Positions 3,184 through 61,088 of a DNA stretch of 64,000 bases are shown piece by piece; within the stretch, counting starts at the first letter, position 1, and each line of letters begins with the position of its first letter. A program made the translations under genes and the position numbers. Under the pieces are notes generated by a model. The model was given only the letters and a program-made list of their open reading frames with translations. It made no database searches and was not told the origin of the DNA. Origin of the DNA: Octopus vulgaris (Eukaryota); assembly GCA_951406725.2 (NCBI GenBank), contig OX597835.1:10168001-10232000 (forward strand). Reading direction: 5' to 3'.

Positions 3184-3248
<65 letters not shown>

Positions 3249-6200
3249 GGCCTTCTTGAGGCCTTCTACCATGCCATATATTTCCCCACAGATAAGTCTA
3301 GCACTGTACAAGCATACTTAAACTGGAGACAGAAACACCCTGAAGTAAGACCCTACATAGACAGTAACAAGCTTGCCAATGTTAGAAGAAACATTATAAA
3401 AAAGAAATTACTGACTGAAGTAGAGATTGATCAGGTTAGACAAGCAATATCGGATAAAATGAACGAAGCTGCAGCTAGAGAAGATAATACAGAGGAAATG
3501 ATTATAGACCAGCCCAGGGCGGATAAAAACGAAGAGAGGATTGAAAGAGTTAGTATAAGTGATAGGCAAAGTGAAATACGCCCTGAACCAATCATAAACA
3601 CTAAGACAGATGAGCATCAAATAGATAAAGAAAGTCACACAAATATTGACCCAACAGAACTACATGAGCTAAAAAGTCAAATCATGATTGAATGGCTGAA
3701 AATTAAAGAAACCAGCATGGATGAGCGTGATACACTTCCTAAAATCCGCAACTCTAACCAAAACATGAAAATAATTGGTAAAATCCGGCTTGCACTTAAG
3801 GATATAATTTCAGTTAATGATGTTGATATCACAAACCTCAACCACCTATACTATGCATCCGCGAAAATCTCAACGATCCTATGTGGTGTAAAGATTAGAA
3901 AACGGCAACAGTCCCACAAAAAGCCTTCTTGGCAAGAGCGTCTGCAACAACAAATTAAAATATTTAGATCTGACATTGAATATTTGAAAAACCTTAAGGC
4001 TCACAAGATTACCAAACCTACAAAAACCCAAAAATTACTGAAAAAATACAATATGAAAACTATACTTGATATTGATGCCACCATAGAAACCATCAAACAA
4101 AAGGTATCTGCCAAAGCTGCCCGCATAGCGAGGTATGAAAAGCGTGTTAGATTTTTCAAGGACAACAACATGTTCAAAAATAACACCAAGAATTTTTACA
4201 GGAAGATAGGAAAAACAGCGTTTACTGCAGGGTCTGTACCATCAAAAGAAGAAGTGCAGAGATTTTGGAATAAAATCTGGGCAGAAGAAAAAACACACAA
4301 CGAAAAGGCCCCCTGGATTGACAGAATATCTACAGAACTGGACCCCTTAGAAGAGCAAAAGTGGGAGGGTGTCAAGGTAGAAGATATAAGATCTGCTCTC
4401 AGGAGGTCAAGCAAATGGAAGTCTCCAGGAAAGGATAAAATCCCTAACTTTTGGTTGAATGCCTTCCCAGAGAGCCATGAACTGCTAACAGAACTGTACA
4501 ATGATGTTTTGCAACACCCTAGTAGGATGCCTCCTTGGCTAGTTAATGGGTTAACATTCCTGCTTCCAAAAAGTGAAGAAACAAATGAACCAAAAAACTA
4601 TAGACCCATAACCTGCTTAACAACTATGTACAAAACACTAACATCTGTCCTGACGGAATATACCTATAGTTTTTTAACAGACAGCAGCATATTCCCTAAT
4701 GAACAGAAAGGATGTAAACGTGGATCCTACGGCTGTAAAGACCAACTACTCATCAATAAGATGATCTTAGAAGATTGTCACAAACGACACAAAAACTTAT
4801 CAATAGCCTGGATAGACTATAAAAAGGCTTTTGATAGCCTACCACATAGCTGGATTAGGAAATGCCTTGAAATGTATAAGATAGCACCAACTCTGCGAAA
4901 CTTCTTGACTGTAAGTATGAGATCATGGAGAACCACACTAACTCTGAACAGTGACAGTGAATCCCTAAATGCTGGTGATGTAAAAATTTCGTGTGGCATT
5001 TTCCAGGGTGACTCACTGTCACCACTCCTCTTTTGTTTATCCTTAATACCTCTCTCAAAGCTGCTCAATGATGCGCAGTACGGGTATAAAATGTTTGATA
5101 AAAATATAAATCATCTCGTTTACATGGATGATTTAAAGCTTTTTGCAAAAAATGATCAACAACTCAAGGGCTTACTAGCGATAGTCAAACAATTCAGTGA
5201 CGACATCAGAATGCAATTCGGCCTCGATAAATGTGCAAAGGCTACCTTTATCAAAGGAAAAATGACAGAAACATCTAACGTTAACCTTCACCAACAGAAT
5301 GTCATAAAAGAACTAGACCCAGCGGAGAGCTACAAGTACCTAGGGATAATTGAAGGGAACGGAATAAGGCATTCAGAGATGAAGGAAAGGATCAGGAGAG
5401 AATGCTATCGAAGAGTGAGAGCAATACTCAAGACAGAGCTGAATGCGAGAAACAGGATCGAAGCAATCAATGCATTAGCTATACCAGTCGTGACTTACAG
5501 TTTCAATATTGTTAACTGGTCAATTACTGAAATATGTCAGCTCGACAGAAAAATAAGGAAACTGTTGACAATGCATAGAATGCACCACCCTAAGGCAGAT
5601 ACAGAACGACTATATCTGCCAAGAAAAGAGGGAGGCCGTGGTCTTTTGCAACTGGCAATAACAATGAAGATTGCTACAATTGGCCTAGACACCTACCTGA
5701 AAAACTCTGAGGACTGGATGCTAAAACTTGTCTCAAAACATGAAAACAAGAAAGCATCATACTCAGTCACAAAACAGGCAAAGGAATATCTAAGTGAACT
5801 CCGAATACAACCAATTTCGGAATTAGAGATAGATATACAAGAAACAAGCACAGAAAAAGCTAGGCGCATGAAAACCCGTGCCAAAACTGCGGCCTTAGAT
5901 ATTCTGAATAATAAATGGCAAGAAAAACCTCTCTATGGCAAATACCCAAAGAGAGCGAATAATGCAGATATCGACAAAGCCCTGACCCATCAATGGCTAA
6001 TGGCCTCTGGCTTAAAATCTGAAACAGAGGGGTTTATCATAGCAGCTCAAGATCAATGCCTACCAACAAGAAACTACCAGGCCAACATATTAAAGATCAG
6101 AAGCAGTCCAACGTGTCGTGTATGCAAGCAACAAAATGAAACCATTGACCATGTGGTCTCCAAGTGCAGTCTTCTAGCGCCTACAGAGTATCTCAACAGG

Positions 6201-6680
6201 CACGATAGAGCTGCACAATATATTCACTGGGTAATCTGTAAAAACCTGGATTTGCCCCATGAAAAAAACTGGTGGGAACACAAACCACCCCCAGTGCTTG
6301 AAAATGACCACATCTCACTCCTCTGGAACTTCACCATTCAAACTGACAGGAAGATAGATGCAAATAGGCCAGACATCATATTGAAAAACTTCAAACAAAG
6401 AACATGCCTCCTCATTGATATGACTGTCCCAATCGATATAAACGTATCTGTCAAGACCTACCAAAAACTGAGCAAATATAAAGATCTTGAAATAGAAATC
6501 AGCAAAATGTGGAAGCTGAAGACTAAAACAATACCTGTTGTCATAGGTGCCCTGGGAATGATAGCAAAAGGGGCTGATAGCTACCTAACTCAGATACCAG
6601 GAAACCCAAAAATGGCAGAAGTTCAAAAGATAGTGCTCATGGGAACTGCTCATATCCTACGCAAAATACTCTCTATGTAA
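3249..6680 (+). CDS. retrotransposon polyprotein: reverse transcriptase, CCHC zinc knuckle and restriction-like endonuclease
   Basis: RT motifs KSPGKD, NYRPITCL, IDYKKAFDS, GIFQGDSLSP, YMDD, YKYLG; CRVC...HVVSKC zinc knuckle; RHD, RPDI, LIDMTVP, KLSKY RLE motifs. The frame stays open 70 codons upstream of the ATG at 3459 (GLLEAFYH...KLANVRRNIIKKKLLTEVEI), back to an in-frame TAA of the microsatellite at 3246. Confidence 0.93.
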   Translation, partial: GLLEAFYHAIYFPTDKSSTVQAYLNWRQKHPEVRPYIDSNKLANVRRNIIKKKLLTEVEIDQVRQAISDKMNEAAAREDNTEEMIIDQPRADKNEERIERVSISDRQSEIRPEPIINTKTDEHQIDKESHTNIDPTELHELKSQIMIEWLKIKETSMDERDTLPKIRNSNQNMKIIGKIRLALKDIISVNDVDITNLNHLYYASAKISTILCGVKIRKRQQSHKKPSWQERLQQQIKIFRSDIEYLKNLKAHKITKPTKTQKLLKKYNMKTILDIDATIETIKQKVSAKAARIARYEKRVRFFKDNNMFKNNTKNFYRKIGKTAFTAGSVPSKEEVQRFWNKIWAEEKTHNEKAPWIDRISTELDPLEEQKWEGVKVEDIRSALRRSSKWKSPGKDKIPNFWLNAFPESHELLTELYNDVLQHPSRMPPWLVNGLTFLLPKSEETNEPKNYRPITCLTTMYKTLTSVLTEYTYSFLTDSSIFPNEQKGCKRGSYGCKDQLLINKMILEDCHKRHKNLSIAWIDYKKAFDSLPHSWIRKCLEMYKIAPTLRNFLTVSMRSWRTTLTLNSDSESLNAGDVKISCGIFQGDSLSPLLFCLSLIPLSKLLNDAQYGYKMFDKNINHLVYMDDLKLFAKNDQQLKGLLAIVKQFSDDIRMQFGLDKCAKATFIKGKMTETSNVNLHQQNVIKELDPAESYKYLGIIEGNGIRHSEMKERIRRECYRRVRAILKTELNARNRIEAINALAIPVVTYSFNIVNWSITEICQLDRKIRKLLTMHRMHHPKADTERLYLPRKEGGRGLLQLAITMKIATIGLDTYLKNSEDWMLKLVSKHENKKASYSVTKQAKEYLSELRIQPISELEIDIQETSTEKARRMKTRAKTAALDILNNKWQEKPLYGKYPKRANNADIDKALTHQWLMASGLKSETEGFIIAAQDQCLPTRNYQANILKIRSSPTCRVCKQQNETIDHVVSKCSLLAPTEYLNRHDRAAQYIHWVICKNLDLPHEKNWWEHKPPPVLENDHISLLWNFTIQTDRKIDANRPDIILKNFKQRTCLLIDMTVPIDINVSVKTYQKLSKYKDLEIEISKMWKLKTKTIPVVIGALGMIAKGADSYLTQIPGNPKMAEVQKIVLMGTAHILRKILSM

Positions 6681-16311: not shown

Positions 16312-17593
16312 CAGGGAGCGATGGGTAAATTGTCGCCCTTTTATATTTTTAATTTCGCACCTGAGCATTGTTTGTATTTGATTTTGTCGGCTACACAGTA
16401 TAGTAGGGTCAGTTGGGCACCGTCTGTGAGAGAACGAGCATCATGAGCACAATTCGCTCTGCCAGAAATTTGAGAACGACATGCTGTACTGCTTGACATT
16501 CGCACCGGAATCTCCATTAAGATCATTTCAGAACGTTTGGGTGTCAATCTAAGAACAGTGCAGAGGATTCAGAAAGAGTTGGATGAGTTTAATGGTGATT
16601 ATGAAGGTAAGGCAGCTCGGAAAAGTCACTCTGATTGTTCTGATAAGAGAAGAACTCCTGAATTTGTTGGTGAGATCCAGTCCATGATTGACAACAATCC
16701 GTCCACGTCAATTAGGTCTCTGGCCAGAGACATGGGAGTGTCTGTGTTTCTTATCAGGCAGGTAATGCATGAATACATTCGGTATTCCTCATACAAGATG
16801 AGAAAGGGCTAACTGGTTTTTTATCCCCAGCCATTAAGGACAAGAGGAAGGGCCTCGCTACGAAGCTTTTGAACAAACTCAAGCACCCACTCCAACCGAA
16901 CATGATTTGGTTTTTCTCAGACAAGAAAATTTTCTGCCAGAATCAGATGGTGAACACACAGAACAATCATTGGTTTGCTGTGTCGCCAAAACATGTACCG
17001 AGAGTGATAAAAATCTAACATCCAGTCAACATCATGGTGTTTGGAGTGGTCACTGGTGTCGGCGACGTTATGCCTCTGTTCATCTTCCCACACGGCCTCA
17101 GATTCAACACGGAGGTCTACATCAAGCGTCTGGAGGAGGTAGTACTGCCCTGGGTCAAGACCCTATATCTGGCAACAGGACTTTGCACCATGCCACACAA
17201 GCAGGAGACCCCACTCATGGCTGTCAGGCAATTTCTGCGACCACATCACCCCCTAACGTCTGGCCACCTCACTCCCCAGACTGATTATTATGTGTGGGCA
17301 TAGTTGAGTAAGAGACTAACAAAACTCCTTGCAACACCAAAGATGAACTGAAGGCAAGGATTATGGCAGCATTCACCAACTCAAACAAGGAGACTATCCA
17401 GAAGAGTTGCAGAAGATTATGAAGTCGTCTGGAGGCTGTGGTTGAACCCAATGGCGATTTTATTGAATAAATTTTCTCTTTAGTATTTCAAGATATTTTT
17501 ATGTAATTTTGGTAAATATATCTGTTAAAATGAGATGTCAATGTTATTTTCATTTTTGAGTAATTTATACGACGATTTATTCATCGCACTGTG
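16312..17593 (+). mobile_element. decayed Tc1/mariner-superfamily transposon (DD37D/maT-like), transposase pseudogenised
   Basis: Imperfect TIRs CAGGGAGCGATGGGTAAATTGTCG / CGACGATTTATTCATCGCACTGTG; fragments LGVNLRTVQRI (HTH), IWFFSDKKIF, MVFGVV..GDVMPLFIF, WQQDFAPCH, WPPHSPD, YYVW split by frameshifts and stops. Confidence 0.85.
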
Positions 17594-51012: not shown

Positions 51013-51229
51013 TGTCGTTTCTTTGGGATATTCAACATTATCCGTTGGACCAACAATGCAGCTGGAGAACTTACTAAAGATCACCGGTTCTGCGGGCAGA
51101 GCAATATTCATTTCTTCACAGTGGTCTTTGTAGTTCATACCAACACAAATTAATTTATCAGGATTTGTAATTGGTGACAATAACTTCACATCTTCCTTTA
51201 CACTTGAACACTTTGAGTTTTCAACCACC
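51013..51229 (-). CDS. FAHD2: FAHD2-like exon (VVENSKCSSVKEDVKLLSPITNPDKLICVGMNYKDHCEEMNIALPAEPVIFSKFSSCIVGPTDNVEYPKETT)
   Basis: Acceptor ttttcttgtAG, donor GTAAGC; PDK.ICVGMNY.DHC.E and EP.IFSKF motifs of FAHD2A/B. Confidence 0.95.
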
Positions 51230-52089
51230 CTACAAGAAAAAAGGGAAGCATTAAATGACCTTAGTCTCTTTGGTAGAAGAATAGAAATTTCTTAGTTTAA
51301 TATTAATAATATCAAGACTAATATTTCCTGCAGCAAATCGAAATCGAACCAAATCCTATGACTGGCACCCAGCCGTTGCCAGTGCCGCTGGACTGACTCC
51401 TGTGCAGGTGGCAAGTAAAGAAACACCGTTTCGACCCTGTGCTTGAGGAGATCCATTGAGTCAAGTACATCAACATCAAAAATCAATGGAAATTGTAGTT
51501 GTGATCCCTGTGCCAGGGGCACGTAAAAAGCACCATCCGAACATAGCCGATGCCAGCGACACCTTGACTGGCTTCTGTGCCAGGGACACGTAAAAAGCAC
51601 CATCTGAACATAGCCGATGCCAGCGCCGCCTTGACTGACTTCTGTGCCAGTGGCACATAAAAAGCTCCAACCGATCATGTGCTGATGTTATTGACATTTG
51701 TCCTGTTCACTGGCTTCATTCCTTCAAAGACATGTAAGATACGAGATCCCTTCTTTGAAAAATAGGTAAGTGTTAGTGATAGGAAGAGCATCCAGCTGTA
51801 ATGTAATATATTCATCTAACCCATGCTAGCATGGAAAAGTGGGTGTAAAACCTAATGAGTTTATATATAAAGACATTTAATACTCTTCAACTTTAATAAT
51901 GATAATACAAACCAGCCAGTTCAATAAAACATCTACAAACTATCTACACCCCTCACACCGCCAAAATTACCACCACTATCTCCATCCATGACAACCACTA
52001 TTAATATGCTGATAAAACTGAAAGTTTTACCATAAATTGATAAGCAGGCACATGACTGTTAATAAGATATCCTAATCAGCATGGACAAG

Positions 52090-55469: not shown

Positions 55470-55504
<35 letters not shown>

Positions 55505-56554
55505 ATTCTGTAGAGTTTTCAACAAACCAATTTCCCCCATAAGATATTGGTCAAACAAGGGTTACAGTAAAGAACATTTATTTAACGAACGAACATTGAG
55601 ATTGAACTCACGACCACACAACCCCACAAACACTCCTATATCCATTGTCCTCCTCTAAACTCCAGTAAATCAATGAGAGCTGAATCTATAATGAACATCT
55701 TATTGACAAACAGAAGTTAAAAAGAAAGAAACTCATCGCTCTTACCCTTTCTCTGTTCTACTTATTCAAAATCAATGTCTGCTTGATACGGTCCACTTAA
55801 CTTGTCGCTACTTCTCTCAGCATGTCCTACTTAGTTGACAATCAATCTGTTCTCACCTCTCCATTCTTCTCAACTCCTACTACCACGTGTTCCACACTGC
55901 TAAACCAGCGGATTTCACACATAAACCATCTTTTCTTCAAATATAGGAACTTTTCCGCACACGCCCCCTTATACACACACACACATACAGGTGTTTGTAT
56001 TTGCAAGTTGGTGAAGAACTGTTAATATCTATTTCTTTATTACCCACAAGGGGCTAAACACAGAGGGGACAAACAAGGACAGACATAGGTATTAAGTCGA
56101 TTACATCGACACCAGTGCGTAACTGGTACTTAATTTATCGAACCCGAAAGGATGAAAAGTAAAGTCGACCTCGGCGGAATTTGAACTTAGAACGCAGCGG
56201 CGGACGAAATACTGCAAAGCATTTCGCCCGGCGTGCTAACGATTCTGCCAGCTCACCGCCTCAGACACCGTTCTGTTAATATCGATGACTTTTGCAGGTT
56301 CTCTAAGGCTAAGAAGAAGGAAGCTTTATAGAGGGACCTTGTTGCAAGAATTACAACCCTGTTAGTATCACTAAAGGCATCTAGGGCAACACAGAAGGGC
56401 TTAACCAAATTATGGAGAAAGTCTACGTCCCCATAAAGAGGAACAGTCTTTCTCATGAGCTTCCACACAGTTTCCATTTCTCCAGCAAATTTCCCTTGGT
56501 AGGCCTTTAATCAACCCATAGCTGTAGTAGAAGGTTTTTATCTAAGATGCCGTG

Positions 56555-56932
56555 TACTTACTTGTACTTGTGGCGACATTCACCCTGGGCGGGTTGAGTC
56601 GGCTACTTCTACCACTCTCGAGGCAGAAGAAGTTTCGTGGGAATATGTGGATTTCAGAAGCGGTCCCCAACAATCCCGCATGTAGAGACATCCTGTTTGC
56701 TGCGGATTGTCCGCAGACGCAGGGACAGAACGACCGAGGAGCCGTCGGTTGCCGAAGCAGACACTCCGAGGATTTTCACCAGAGCCCCGTCTGCCGGGTT
56801 GTAACCCTAATACCACTCGGTGTCAGACCAATCCGCCTTGGGTGGCCCTACCAAAGTTCCCGACGGCATAGCTCTGACACTACCCGTTGCCAGCGTCCCC
56901 ACCACGGTGAGGAGGGGATAGACTTTGGGGAC
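56555..56932 (-). mobile_element. non-autonomous RTE-derived retroposon (5' UTR + 3' tail) with a 13-bp TSD
   Basis: TSD CTAAGATGCCGTG at 56542-56554 and 56932-56944; RTE/BovB-like 5' motif GAGCTATGCCGT..AGGGCCACCCAAGGCGGA; (CAAGTA)n tail. Confidence 0.8.
56880..56932 (-). ncRNA. HDV-like ribozyme candidate at the element 5' end
   Basis: ^GTCCCCA(P1) AAGT CTATCC(P2) CCTC(P3) CTCACC(L3) GTGG(P3') TGGGGAC(P1') GCTGG C AAC GGGTAG(P2'); P3 has one U-U mismatch. Confidence 0.55.
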
Positions 56933-58035
56933 TAAGATGCCGTGAAGTGGGAATAAACCCAAAACCACACAGGAGCAAAGAGAACTTGCTAACCCAGCAG
57001 CCATATCAACATCCATTCAGGAACAGGTGAGATCCTGACAAAACACTCCCATGACAAACTCTTTCCACAGACCAACGCAACCCCCTCCACTTGGGCAAAG
57101 TCCTTCAGAAGGCAAATTGAAGCAAAAGTCCCTGGTTTAAAGTGTATTTGGTGTTGTTTTTGAACAGCTGCCCTTTGAAGTCACATACTTCATGAAAAAA
57201 AAAAGGGCAGGATTATTTTTCTCATTTCTTTTTGAACTCTTCCAGTGTTTCACGTCACCCTATTCCTACCCAGTACCAAAACATTTTCCTTTCCATTGTG
57301 GTATCGGACTACGAGCATCAGCTATTTAAAATTTTCTTTTTTCAAACTACTTTTCAAGCTAAATAAACGTCTGTAATGTCATATCTCCCCAATAACGAAA
57401 GTATCAAGTAATTCTTTCACTAAAAAAACAATTATTTCAGTTGGTAATCAAAAAACTGAAACAGCAAATATTTTGCATTTCGGTTTCACACACCTGAATT
57501 CTCCGACCCTTTTTCAGGTAAATTTTTACTTCTTCTCCCGTCTTATGAAATAAAATATCAAAACTTTCAAGAAAATTCCCCAGGTCAGATTCATAACCAA
57601 TGGGAAAGAAAGAACTCAACAAAATAGCTGGACGGGTATATATATATACTCAGTGGTTAAAGCGTCGAGCTTACGATCGTGAGGTTGTGAGCTCGAATCC
57701 CGGACCGGGCTGCGTGTTGTGTTCTTGAGCAAAGCACTTTATTTCACGTTGCTCCAGTTCACTCAGCTGTAGAAATGAGTTGCGACGTCACAGGTGCCAA
57801 GCTGTATCGACCTTTGCCTTTCCCTTGGATAACACTGGTAGCGTGGAGAGGGGAGGCTGGTATGCATGGGCGACTGCTGGTCTTCCATAAACAACCTTGC
57901 CCGGACTTGTGTCTAGGAGGGTAACTTTCTAGGTACAATCTCATGGTCATTCATGACCGAAGGGGGTCAGAAAAAAAAATATATATATATATATGATAGA
58001 TCGGTAGCCACTACACACATTTTTTTTCTGTGTCC

Positions 58036-59382: not shown

Positions 59383-61088
59383 TATATATTAAAAGGCAAG
59401 TTGTCTATCTGTGTGTGTATGTAGTGTGAACCACTTCTACTCTTACAATTTTCAACCAAATTTCACCAAATTTGACATGAGAGCTCTCTTTAACTTAGGA
59501 CATTCTTTCTTATAAATTTTTCCTCGAAATTCCATGTCCCTAACATAAATAGATAACTCTCAATTCGCCTAGGATTTGGATTGAGCCAGTGACAAAATGT
59601 GATACACACCCAGCTGGAAAAGATCAATACTTTACTTTGTCAGCTGTGGTGAGCTCTTATCGACTGCTTGCACAGTACTGCCAGCAGTATTCATTTGCAA
59701 GTTACGATTTGCTTCCGTTTTCGCATGAGCGCTCTTTTTCATATAATTATTCCAATTTAAACTAACCACTTCAAAACTCTTACCCAAAATTAAAAATCTT
59801 TAATTCTGTCTGTTTGATTAACATTTTTGCCAACTACATTTTACTGGGGTTTTTTTGGGTGCCACACATTCACCGCATTTTCCTTAGGACTTTTTCTATT
59901 GCGTAAACTGATAATTTTCCACCATGCCTCGATGCAAAAGATCCAATATAGGTCAGCAAACAAATGCTGCGAAGAAAAGTAAACGTATGCGTGCAAATGA
60001 ATCTGCCGAGGACTCCGCCAGGATGAACTCTCTCAATGTACTTAGGATGGCTTCAGTGTGAAAAAGGGAAAGTGAGGAGCAGCGTTGTGATCGGTCAGCA
60101 CATATTGCTGCGGAACGAGCCGTCCAGAGCAACGAGCAACGTTCAGCACGCCGAACAAGAAATGCTTCCTCTACTGCTGCTGCACGATCTTCAGAGACTC
60201 CAGCACAATTTGCAGATCGACTTACAAGAGATGCTTCCTCAAGTGCTGCTGCACAACGTGCAATTCGACATACAAGAGATGCCTCCTCATCTGCTGTTGC
60301 ACGAGCTCCAGAGACTGCAGCACAACGTGCAGATCAACTTACAAGAGACGCTTCCTCAACTGCTGTTGCATGAGCTGCAGAGACTGCAGCACAACGCGGA
60401 GATCGACTTACAAGAGATGCTTCGTCAACTGTTCATGCACGAGCTCCAGAGACTGCAGCACAATGCACAGATCGACTCACAAGAGATGCTTGCAGCAACT
60501 GCTGCTGCACACGCTACGGAGACTACAGGAGAAAGACAACAACGGATGTTGCTCTATGCGGCAAACAGGAAAACATCAGGTAACCATACCCTTGTCCCCT
60601 TATTTAGTTCATTAGCGTAATCTTCACAGTGTGCTCTCCGTAAAGTGCGCCCCAATCTTGAGGTAGATACTACACTTTTTATCTTTTTTGCACAGGTCAC
60701 ACGTCAAATTTTTTGTTCAGATAATGTTGTACGTGCTACCCCTCGAAACAGCTGGTAAGCATACTCCTTCTCTTTATGCCATATCTTTAGGCTCAACCTT
60801 TCCATCTGCTAAACAGCGCATGTCAGCAGTTATGTGGTAAGGAAAAATAAACTCAATTTACTGCCAGTTTTTTACAGATCGACCTACCGTTCCAATGGAA
60901 CACAATGACAATGGTGTGTTCGTATGACTCTGCATGTTCACTATTGCACTAAATAAATCAAACAATGCAGGGAACGTCTGCCATTAGGATTTCTTTTATT
61001 CAGTTCAGAGGTGCATTCATGAATGGTCTAATAACCAAAGAGGCATACTTAACAAACAGCTCCGGGCAACGCCGGGTACGCCTGCTAG
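59383..61088 (+). mobile_element. internally deleted Helitron retaining a RepHel-like N-terminal coding segment
   Basis: 3' hairpin CCGGGCAACGCCGG followed by CTAG|T at 61085-61089; 5' boundary approximate. Confidence 0.65.
59924..60579 (+). pseudogene. Helitron N-terminal pseudo-ORF with 23-aa STPR-like repeats
   Basis: MPRCKRSNIGQQTNAAKKSKRMRANES..., then 69-bp repeats encoding ETAAQRADRLTRDASSTAVARAP; two in-frame TGA stops, a late frameshift, ends at a possible donor CAG|GTAACC. Confidence 0.65.

Follow-up and report, generated by a model that had tools for sequence, protein, structure and literature searches.

A high-copy octopus retroposon, likely a bipartite RTE derivative, with an HDV-like ribozyme predicted at its 5′ end

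A 378-nt element on the minus strand (56932-56555) of the 64-kb window, by which the whole stretch of DNA analysed here is meant, lies between exact 13-bp duplications and belongs to a highly repeated family which we consider rather probable to be a retroposon generated through the loss of an internal portion of an RTE-clade LINE, the first 150 nt of which would constitute an HDV-like ribozyme cutting at the 5′ end of the family. An initial annotation of the same DNA had assigned an HDV-like fold to the 5′ terminus of the element; an HDV-like core is indeed predicted there, but neither in the fold nor in the register that had been put forward. The element, its parts and the nearest host exon are the following.

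56932..56944, minus strand: 5′ target-site duplication of 13 bp, whose base 56932 serves at the same time as the first G of the element
56542..56554, minus strand: 3′ target-site duplication
56555..56932, minus strand: whole element, a single copy of a high-copy family, with ~10 substitutions and at least one 7-nt deletion relative to the family majority
56626..56932, minus strand: 5′ part, probably representing the 5′ UTR of a LINE of the RTE clade; 17 contigs of run X1 diverge at 56626, and the likeness to RTE1_LA is by eye
56571..56625, minus strand: 3′ part, in which the 14 codons closing an RTE-like frame, with its stop at 56582-56580, are followed by a short 3′ UTR; 23 contigs of run X2 enter here
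56555..56570, minus strand: simple-repeat tail CAAGTA CAAGTA AGTA, with loose ends at 56555 and 56559
51013..51237, minus strand: nearest FAHD2 coding exon, ~residues 59-133

The two copies of the 13-bp direct repeat (56542-56554 and 56932-56944) are identical and cannot be prolonged on either side, and the 13-mer occurs only twice in the whole window, just as the target-site duplication had been described; since base 56932 is both the last base of the repeat on the minus strand and the first G of the element, the length of the latter can be given as either 377 or 378 nt. ARAGORN found no tRNA gene between 55500 and 58000 and the element contains no B box and a single A-box-like match with a mismatch, so that it does not qualify as a tRNA-headed SINE (the Ceph-SINEs included), and its three frames give no real Pfam hit; the initial view of a non-coding element of ~377 bp without a tRNA head is thus borne out. 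The combination of a target-site duplication, a simple-repeat tail, lack of protein coding and lack of a small-RNA head is the hallmark of a dispersed retroposon. The 64-kb window contains no second copy, and other copies of the family have longer tails of the (GTAA)n type. In the flanks (56424-56479 and 56956-57011) the depth is raised and one contig of run X6 joins 56475 to 56946; the element appears to be inserted within an older, lower-copy repeat.

Words of the element are present in 20 of the 24 listed runs (four organism labels), no RNA run being recorded among those that contain them, and four of these 20, one per organism, were aligned to the window, giving 3241, 3412, 1860 and 1792 contigs. 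The depth of X1 is 47-71 in the single-copy flank as against ~92,000-688,000 in the bins inside the element, figures that give no copy number and are taken only as an indication of high copy; the family is highly repeated in the four organisms, its copies being of the order of thousands. The boundaries are marked independently by loose ends that pile up at 56932 and at 56555/56559 in all four runs. Both junctions of this copy are present in X1 with zero differences and its 3′ junction is present in X2 (8 differences and 4 gaps over 244 nt), so that the insertion is common to a second organism. Relative to the family majority, ~10 substitutions are seen and 7 nt are missing near 56850, this copy being a slightly decayed member of the family. 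Between 56616 and 56626 the depth falls and the pieces have gaps of 8-12 nt, which makes it likely that the family comprises more than one variant of the junction. In addition, X2 and X6 contain single contigs in which the 5′ end of an element (56930-56932) is joined to position 56758 of another copy, as in a nested insertion or a tandem 5′ unit.

As to the host context, the FAHD2 exons (~residues 59-293) run on the minus strand from 51237 down to 20102, the stretch 51016-51231 having 96% identity to a protein that bears the name of Octopus bimaculoides, and the first coding exon of the gene was not found within the window. Since the minus-strand exons end at 51237 and the first coding exon is absent from the window, the element likely resides within FAHD2 intron 1 and, both being on the minus strand, in the sense orientation that had been noticed from the outset.

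That the element consists of two joined pieces is indicated by a single internal break. In X1, 17 contigs follow the 5′ part to 56626 and then continue with other letters (agreement 0.63), while 23 contigs of X2 follow the 3′ part as far as 56625, beyond which they too have other letters (agreement 0.8), the median loose length being 18 or 25 nt and each junction being seen in one run among the matches listed; these continuations could stem from the autonomous LINE or from longer non-autonomous relatives. On the minus strand the X2 continuation reads, in a translation made by hand, R-R-A-W-A-A-M-V in frame with the A-S-R-V-V-E-V-A-D-S-T-R-P-G-stop of the window, and the 3′ ends read by hand in a portion of the supplement of PMC5786205 are D-R-E-A-W-R-A-A-I for BovB and D-R-A-V-F-R-S-V-V for RTE1_LA, located about as far from the end. 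Furthermore, the 5′ part and the 5′ end of RTE1_LA, as excerpted, both display by eye AGCTATGCC and a long-stem layout, and the tail belongs to the (GTAA)n type, like that of the RTE element Perere-3 in the sections consulted of PMC8501958. On the strength of the single break at 56626/56625 and of the RTE-like protein-end frame entering the 3′ part, the element is likely a 5′ + 3′ non-autonomous RTE that would have retained ~309 + 71 nt; the bipartite RTE-derived build proposed initially has gained a sharp 5′ end, an internal junction and an RTE-like 3′ end and tail.

A chimera in which the ribozyme head of one LINE family is joined to the 3′ end of another (cf. the R2/R1 hybrid SIDEs), or else a non-RTE derivative, would be in keeping with the lack of a single autonomous element found to have both ends and with junction lengths that vary among copies (gaps of 8-12, pieces spanning 56553-56690), and such hybrids are documented in the literature as far as it was covered; we give this explanation a very slight chance, since the RTE clade is indicated by the motif and layout that the 5′ part has in common with RTE1_LA and also by the frame and the tail of the 3′ part.

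No autonomous RTE partner with both ends was found within the 64-kb window. When the short 3′ frame was used in protein searches, no RTE protein emerged (15 candidates, all of them weaker than E 10) and no Atlas hit was obtained, and the single protein hit of this frame, a repetitive protein of 2640 aa with no matched stretch, was dismissed as an artefact. Pattern scans with the 5′ end yielded five metagenome and two genome matches, all seven of which are unrelated beyond the pattern and resemble prokaryotic coding DNA; those with the 3′ end yielded zero viral and zero genome matches. The 1143-codon LINE at 3249-6680 was rejected as a partner, having neither a DNA nor a protein match and a restriction-like rather than an RTE layout. 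This plus-strand frame, with RVT_1, zf-RVT and a restriction-like C-terminus, begins directly after a (TAA)n tract (3191-3248) and is presumably a young LINE of the Dong/R4 type. Elsewhere in the window, a 197-codon glutamine/leucine-rich repetitive frame (60027-60620, plus strand) is overlapped by a cysteine-rich open frame, and the frames at 16838-17284 resemble a remnant of a Tc1/mariner transposase. In the supplement of PMC5786205, the 5′ end (2-74) of the crocodilian Vingi LINE Vingi-2_Gav seems very similar to the CPEB3 ribozyme of mammals.

The 5′ end of the family can be read from the other copies. Since the flank of the copy in the window differs from theirs, copies reaching the 5′ end are clipped at 56932 and it is their loose letters that count. 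The contigs exiting at 56932 into unlike flanks number 40, 45, 43 and 41 in the four runs (agreement 0.39-0.42, median 255 nt) and in every run their plus-strand loose-end consensus opens with G, C, A, A, while at places 3-30 only 11 of 112 letters, counted by hand, are G or C. Given the G, C consensus in four runs out of four and the predominance of A/T at the later places, the family likely starts at least 2 bases further upstream, its first minus-strand letters being a G followed by a C, both of which are absent from this copy; the A letters that come next may belong to the element or reflect a target preference. A sharp 5′ end of the family is supported by the loose ends at 56932 in all four runs, the consensus adding the G and C upstream. 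These two letters extend P1 to 8 of 8 pairs by pairing with 56894/56893, whereas the same two positions are U-C and A-G mismatches in this copy, from which the cut-site pair is absent. The cleavage site assigned earlier to 56932 is not supported, because the plurality letters of the family run at least 2 nt upstream; the predicted cut falls 2 nt 5′ of the start of this copy, whose first base is likely not that of the family. According to part of PMC3774820, variable 5′ junctions are expected if cleavage falls at the element end.

The fold predicted for this 5′ region has the following constituents.

56785..56932, minus strand: predicted HDV-like ribozyme domain, likely with 2 additional nt (G, C) at the 5′ end in the family
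56893..56932, minus strand: P1 enclosing the 5′ strand of P2, P3 and L3; 56932-56927 with 56900-56895, plus two pairs at 56894/56893 with the family letters
56901..56913, minus strand: P3 and 7-nt L3; P3 is 56913-56911 with 56903-56901 (U-U mismatch, C-G, C-G) and L3 is 56910-56904, UCACCGU
56887..56892, minus strand: 3′ strand of P1.1 and joiner; 56892-56891 pair with 56908-56909, and the joiner GCAA is 56890-56887
56795..56886, minus strand: long branched P4, 92 nt; base of 5 bp, 56886-56882 with 56799-56795, and arm of 8 bp, 56880-56873 with 56827-56820
56789..56794, minus strand: J4/2, GCAGAC, with candidate catalytic C 56793 and candidate constrained A 56790; one base above the usual length and assigned from spacing
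56785..56788, minus strand: 3′ strand of P2; four G-C pairs with 56917-56914

With the register moved by three bases, L3 becomes 56910-56904 and the conserved U56910 and G56905 of the reverse wobble are in place, while both pairs of the P1.1 pseudoknot are Watson-Crick (C-G/A-U). P3 has two Watson-Crick pairs and a U-U mismatch as against the 3 bp expected of this helix, P2 has four contiguous G-C pairs followed by a mismatch and one A-U pair, and P1, with the family letters, has 8 pairs, one above what is typical. HDV-like ribozymes are generally described, in the accounts partially consulted, as having a P1 of ~6-7 bp and a P2 of at least 5 bp with mismatches in a third of cases, and a mismatch in P3 is tolerated in a wasp R2 ribozyme. 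J1.1/4 (G, C, A, A) is followed by C56886, which opens the 5-bp stem closed by G56795, and C56793 comes two bases on; each of the four members of the A43:C41:G73:C44 quadruple, and C75 as well, as described for the genomic HDV ribozyme in portions of PMC1874588, accordingly has a counterpart at matching spacing. C56793 and A56790 fit the J4/2 roles, yet one extra C precedes P2′. The family letters add to P4 a cUUCGg-capped hairpin near 56853 and strengthen the hairpin 56816-56801; the 92 nt enclosed by the P4 base are folded as well by 6 of 200 shuffles. A different P2, modelled on RTE1_LA (56923-56917 with 56795-56789, 6 of 7 pairs), is not preceded by a C-N-R-A, buries C56793 and was set aside as a competing fold. 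By eye, the moth SINE HaSE1 has, in the supplement passages of PMC5786205, ACGGGTAG and GTCTGACACC in the order of the octopus P4 (56887-56820, minus strand), upstream of its annotated RTE-derived part.

Rfam detects no ribozyme in 55500-58000; when confined to 56740-56960 it returns a sole and non-significant match to RF02682 (HDV-like; 12.5 bits vs a gathering threshold of 44, E 5.1), aligned in the shifted register, and no match of the 5′ end to the twister family up to E 10, truncated variants of which could escape Rfam. The compact ribozyme originally envisaged would instead cut 5′ of 56932, use a 7-bp P1 that does exist exactly as described (56932-56926 with 56901-56895, 7 of 7 Watson-Crick), have its L3 start at 56913 and either lack P4 (P2′ at 56885-56880) or possess a short one, with C 56871 as the catalytic base. 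We hold this fold to be highly unlikely, notwithstanding that all of its helices exist as sequence and that its loop resembles the L3 of HDV. Silkmoths are known to have P4-less R2 ribozymes (PMC3774820, in part), but in the octopus the compact fold puts a family-wide A where HDV-like ribozymes have the conserved G of L3. None of the four runs contains a variant of at least 8% between 56854 and 56932, so that the A is corrected by no such variant, and the conjecture that it results from CpG decay of a G was discarded on the same account. In a wasp R2 ribozyme a G-to-A change at this place of L3 abolished cleavage, as reported in the section of PMC3774820 consulted. In addition, P3 would require a bulge or a mismatch, P1.1 would consist of a single pair, AGCUA is devoid of a following P2′ and the family 5′ end is located 2 nt further out. 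Finally, the short P2 and the alternative P4 hairpin preceding AGCUA (each with 6 pairs, one of them G-U) are present as sequence, but their pair probability does not exceed 0.001, because 56880-56873, i.e., the 8-bp P4 arm, pairs with 56827-56820 at ~0.6-1.0 in nested folding.

Returning to the shifted-register fold, a stem of at least 6 bp starting from the first base arises in 362 of 20,000 dinucleotide shuffles, so that P1 alone is modest (weak) evidence. The full ribozyme descriptor, which like the core boundaries was defined post hoc, after the sequence was seen, is matched by none of 20,000 anchored shuffles and by 1 of 300 when any start is allowed; at its successive levels the anchored shuffles that match are 18 (P1 and L3), 3 (plus P1.1) and 2 (plus P4 and J4/2) of 20,000. 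Places with a variant of at least 8% amount to 0 of 66 in the core vs 25 of 312 elsewhere (Fisher p 0.012), a comparison in which 10 of the 25 are private to this copy and contig depth is uneven; for CpG sites only, the corresponding figures are 0 of 5 and 9 of 20 (p 0.12). No covariation is seen in the stems, the core having no variant of at least 8% and the pattern scans no distant relatives, and the whole element folds no better than its shuffles (z -0.86; z -0.37 for the first 93 nt).

Passing from the letters of this copy to those of the family majority, the pairing of the P4 base rises from 0.01-0.07 to 0.74-0.90 and that of P1 from 0-0.05 to 0.08 in a short construct or 0.98 in a long one, while the distance of the nested ribozyme fold from the MFE decreases from 11.5 to 3.8 kcal/mol (short) and from 15.6 to 10.3 kcal/mol (long), these values pertaining to nested folding in which the pseudoknot helices are left uncounted. 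In the short family construct, 56918-56914 reach 0.8-0.9 in pairing with 56900-56896, and 56923-56920 reach ~0.55 with 56792-56789. Such strong competing pairings, together with the short P2, the U-U in P3 and the non-significant Rfam result, speak for a situation in which the same bipartite RTE carries a 5′ fold that is decayed or weak and owes its sharp 5′ end to an internal promoter in the 5′ UTR. There are precedents, in the parts of PMC4035085 covered, in the trypanosome L1Tc/NARTc 5′ ends, which are both promoter and ribozyme, and in some well-folded SIDER ribozymes that are inactive. On the other hand, the invariance of the 66 core places at the 8% level and the circumstance that the two extra 5′ letters of the family exactly complete P1 argue against a decayed fold, which we regard as possible but unlikely.

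The mechanism that we prefer, with a ribozyme at the head of an RTE derivative, would entail that a host transcript, here probably the FAHD2 pre-mRNA, reads through the copy and that the ribozyme with its long branched P4 cuts 5′ of a G lying 2 nt upstream of the start of this copy, C56793 being the predicted catalyst. The protein of an autonomous RTE would then bind the retained 3′ 71 nt and prime reverse transcription on the (GTAA)n-type tail, as known RTE biology suggests, and insertion would generate the duplication, which is seen here, and small 5′ junction losses like those of this copy. We infer the RTE origin, the mobilisation in trans and the transcription from host genes. In the copy in the window the two opening pairs of P1 and one hairpin of P4 are missing, and a Leishmania ribozyme with a 3-bp P2 and a first-pair mismatch has very low cleavage (PMC4035085, in part); for these reasons this copy is probably impaired, cutting poorly or not at all, and good cleavage activity on its part would come as a surprise. 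Rather doubtful is also the broader possibility that octopus harbors thousands of active HDV-like ribozymes of uncommon build, having a C-A/U-G P1.1, a short P2, a branched 92-nt P4 and a C41-type quadruple, and that intact sense intronic copies cut pre-mRNAs co-transcriptionally and thereby affect host gene output.

The design as such is already known from R2 SIDEs, NARTc and bipartite RTEs, the core being atypical and missed by Rfam. What the octopus family would add is a cephalopod case of a high-copy, ribozyme-headed bipartite RTE with a specific, testable fold; its thousands of variably decayed copies would amount to a naturally mutagenized set of variants of an HDV-like ribozyme, and with them one could examine whether retroposon ribozymes located in introns cleave the transcripts of their host. 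Literature searches, covering few subscription papers, gave no title that deals with HDV-like ribozymes in elements of cephalopods, and the passages of the PMC5786205 supplement contain no match to the octopus family, which may already be catalogued in Repbase or Dfam.

Bipartite non-autonomous RTEs (RTE-N2_Lch, RTE1-N1b_LA, RTESINE1/2, WALLSI3, MAR4_MD, Bov-A) are an established class whose members, according to the available passages of Kojima 2018 (PMC5786205), usually retain the 5′ end of the LINE, where ribozymes are predicted. Like them, the octopus element has no ORF and no tRNA head and likely combines an RTE 5′ end with a short 3′ end; RTE-N2_Lch retains 214 + 70 bp as compared with ~309 + 71 in octopus, and unlike RTE1_LA the octopus core has a shorter P2 and an extra P4 branch. 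The R2 SIDEs of Drosophila, for which self-cleavage has been demonstrated, join a 5′ HDV-like ribozyme to a LINE 3′ end, as is predicted for octopus, with small 5′ junction variation, but are site-specific for the rDNA, present in few copies and dependent on the R2 machinery, whereas the octopus family is dispersed, high-copy and flanked by 13-bp duplications (PMC3414825, in part). NARTc, RIME and SIDER of trypanosomatids are likewise short, dispersed and non-autonomous and carry an HDV-like ribozyme head, a feature that is predicted in octopus; they belong, however, to the Ingi/L1Tc clade and have a compact 77-nt ribozyme plus promoter instead of a domain of ~150 nt, and elements of the NARTc type self-cleave with an activity that differs by copy (portions of PMC4035085). 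Perere-3 of Schistosoma, in the sections consulted of PMC8501958, resembles the octopus element in its GTAA-repeat tail and in what is likely or predicted for the latter, namely the RTE clade and a cut site adjoining the target-site duplication, but is autonomous and carries a twister variant, to which the octopus element has no match. Lastly, the predicted octopus core has in common with the genomic HDV ribozyme (PMC1874588, in part) and with RF02682 the order of the double pseudoknot, a 2-bp P1.1, the bases of the quadruple and a C two places after G73, and differs from them in its C-G/A-U P1.1, its P1 of 8 bp (or 7 with a bulge), the U-U in P3, a P2 of 4 bp and a P4 of 92 nt.
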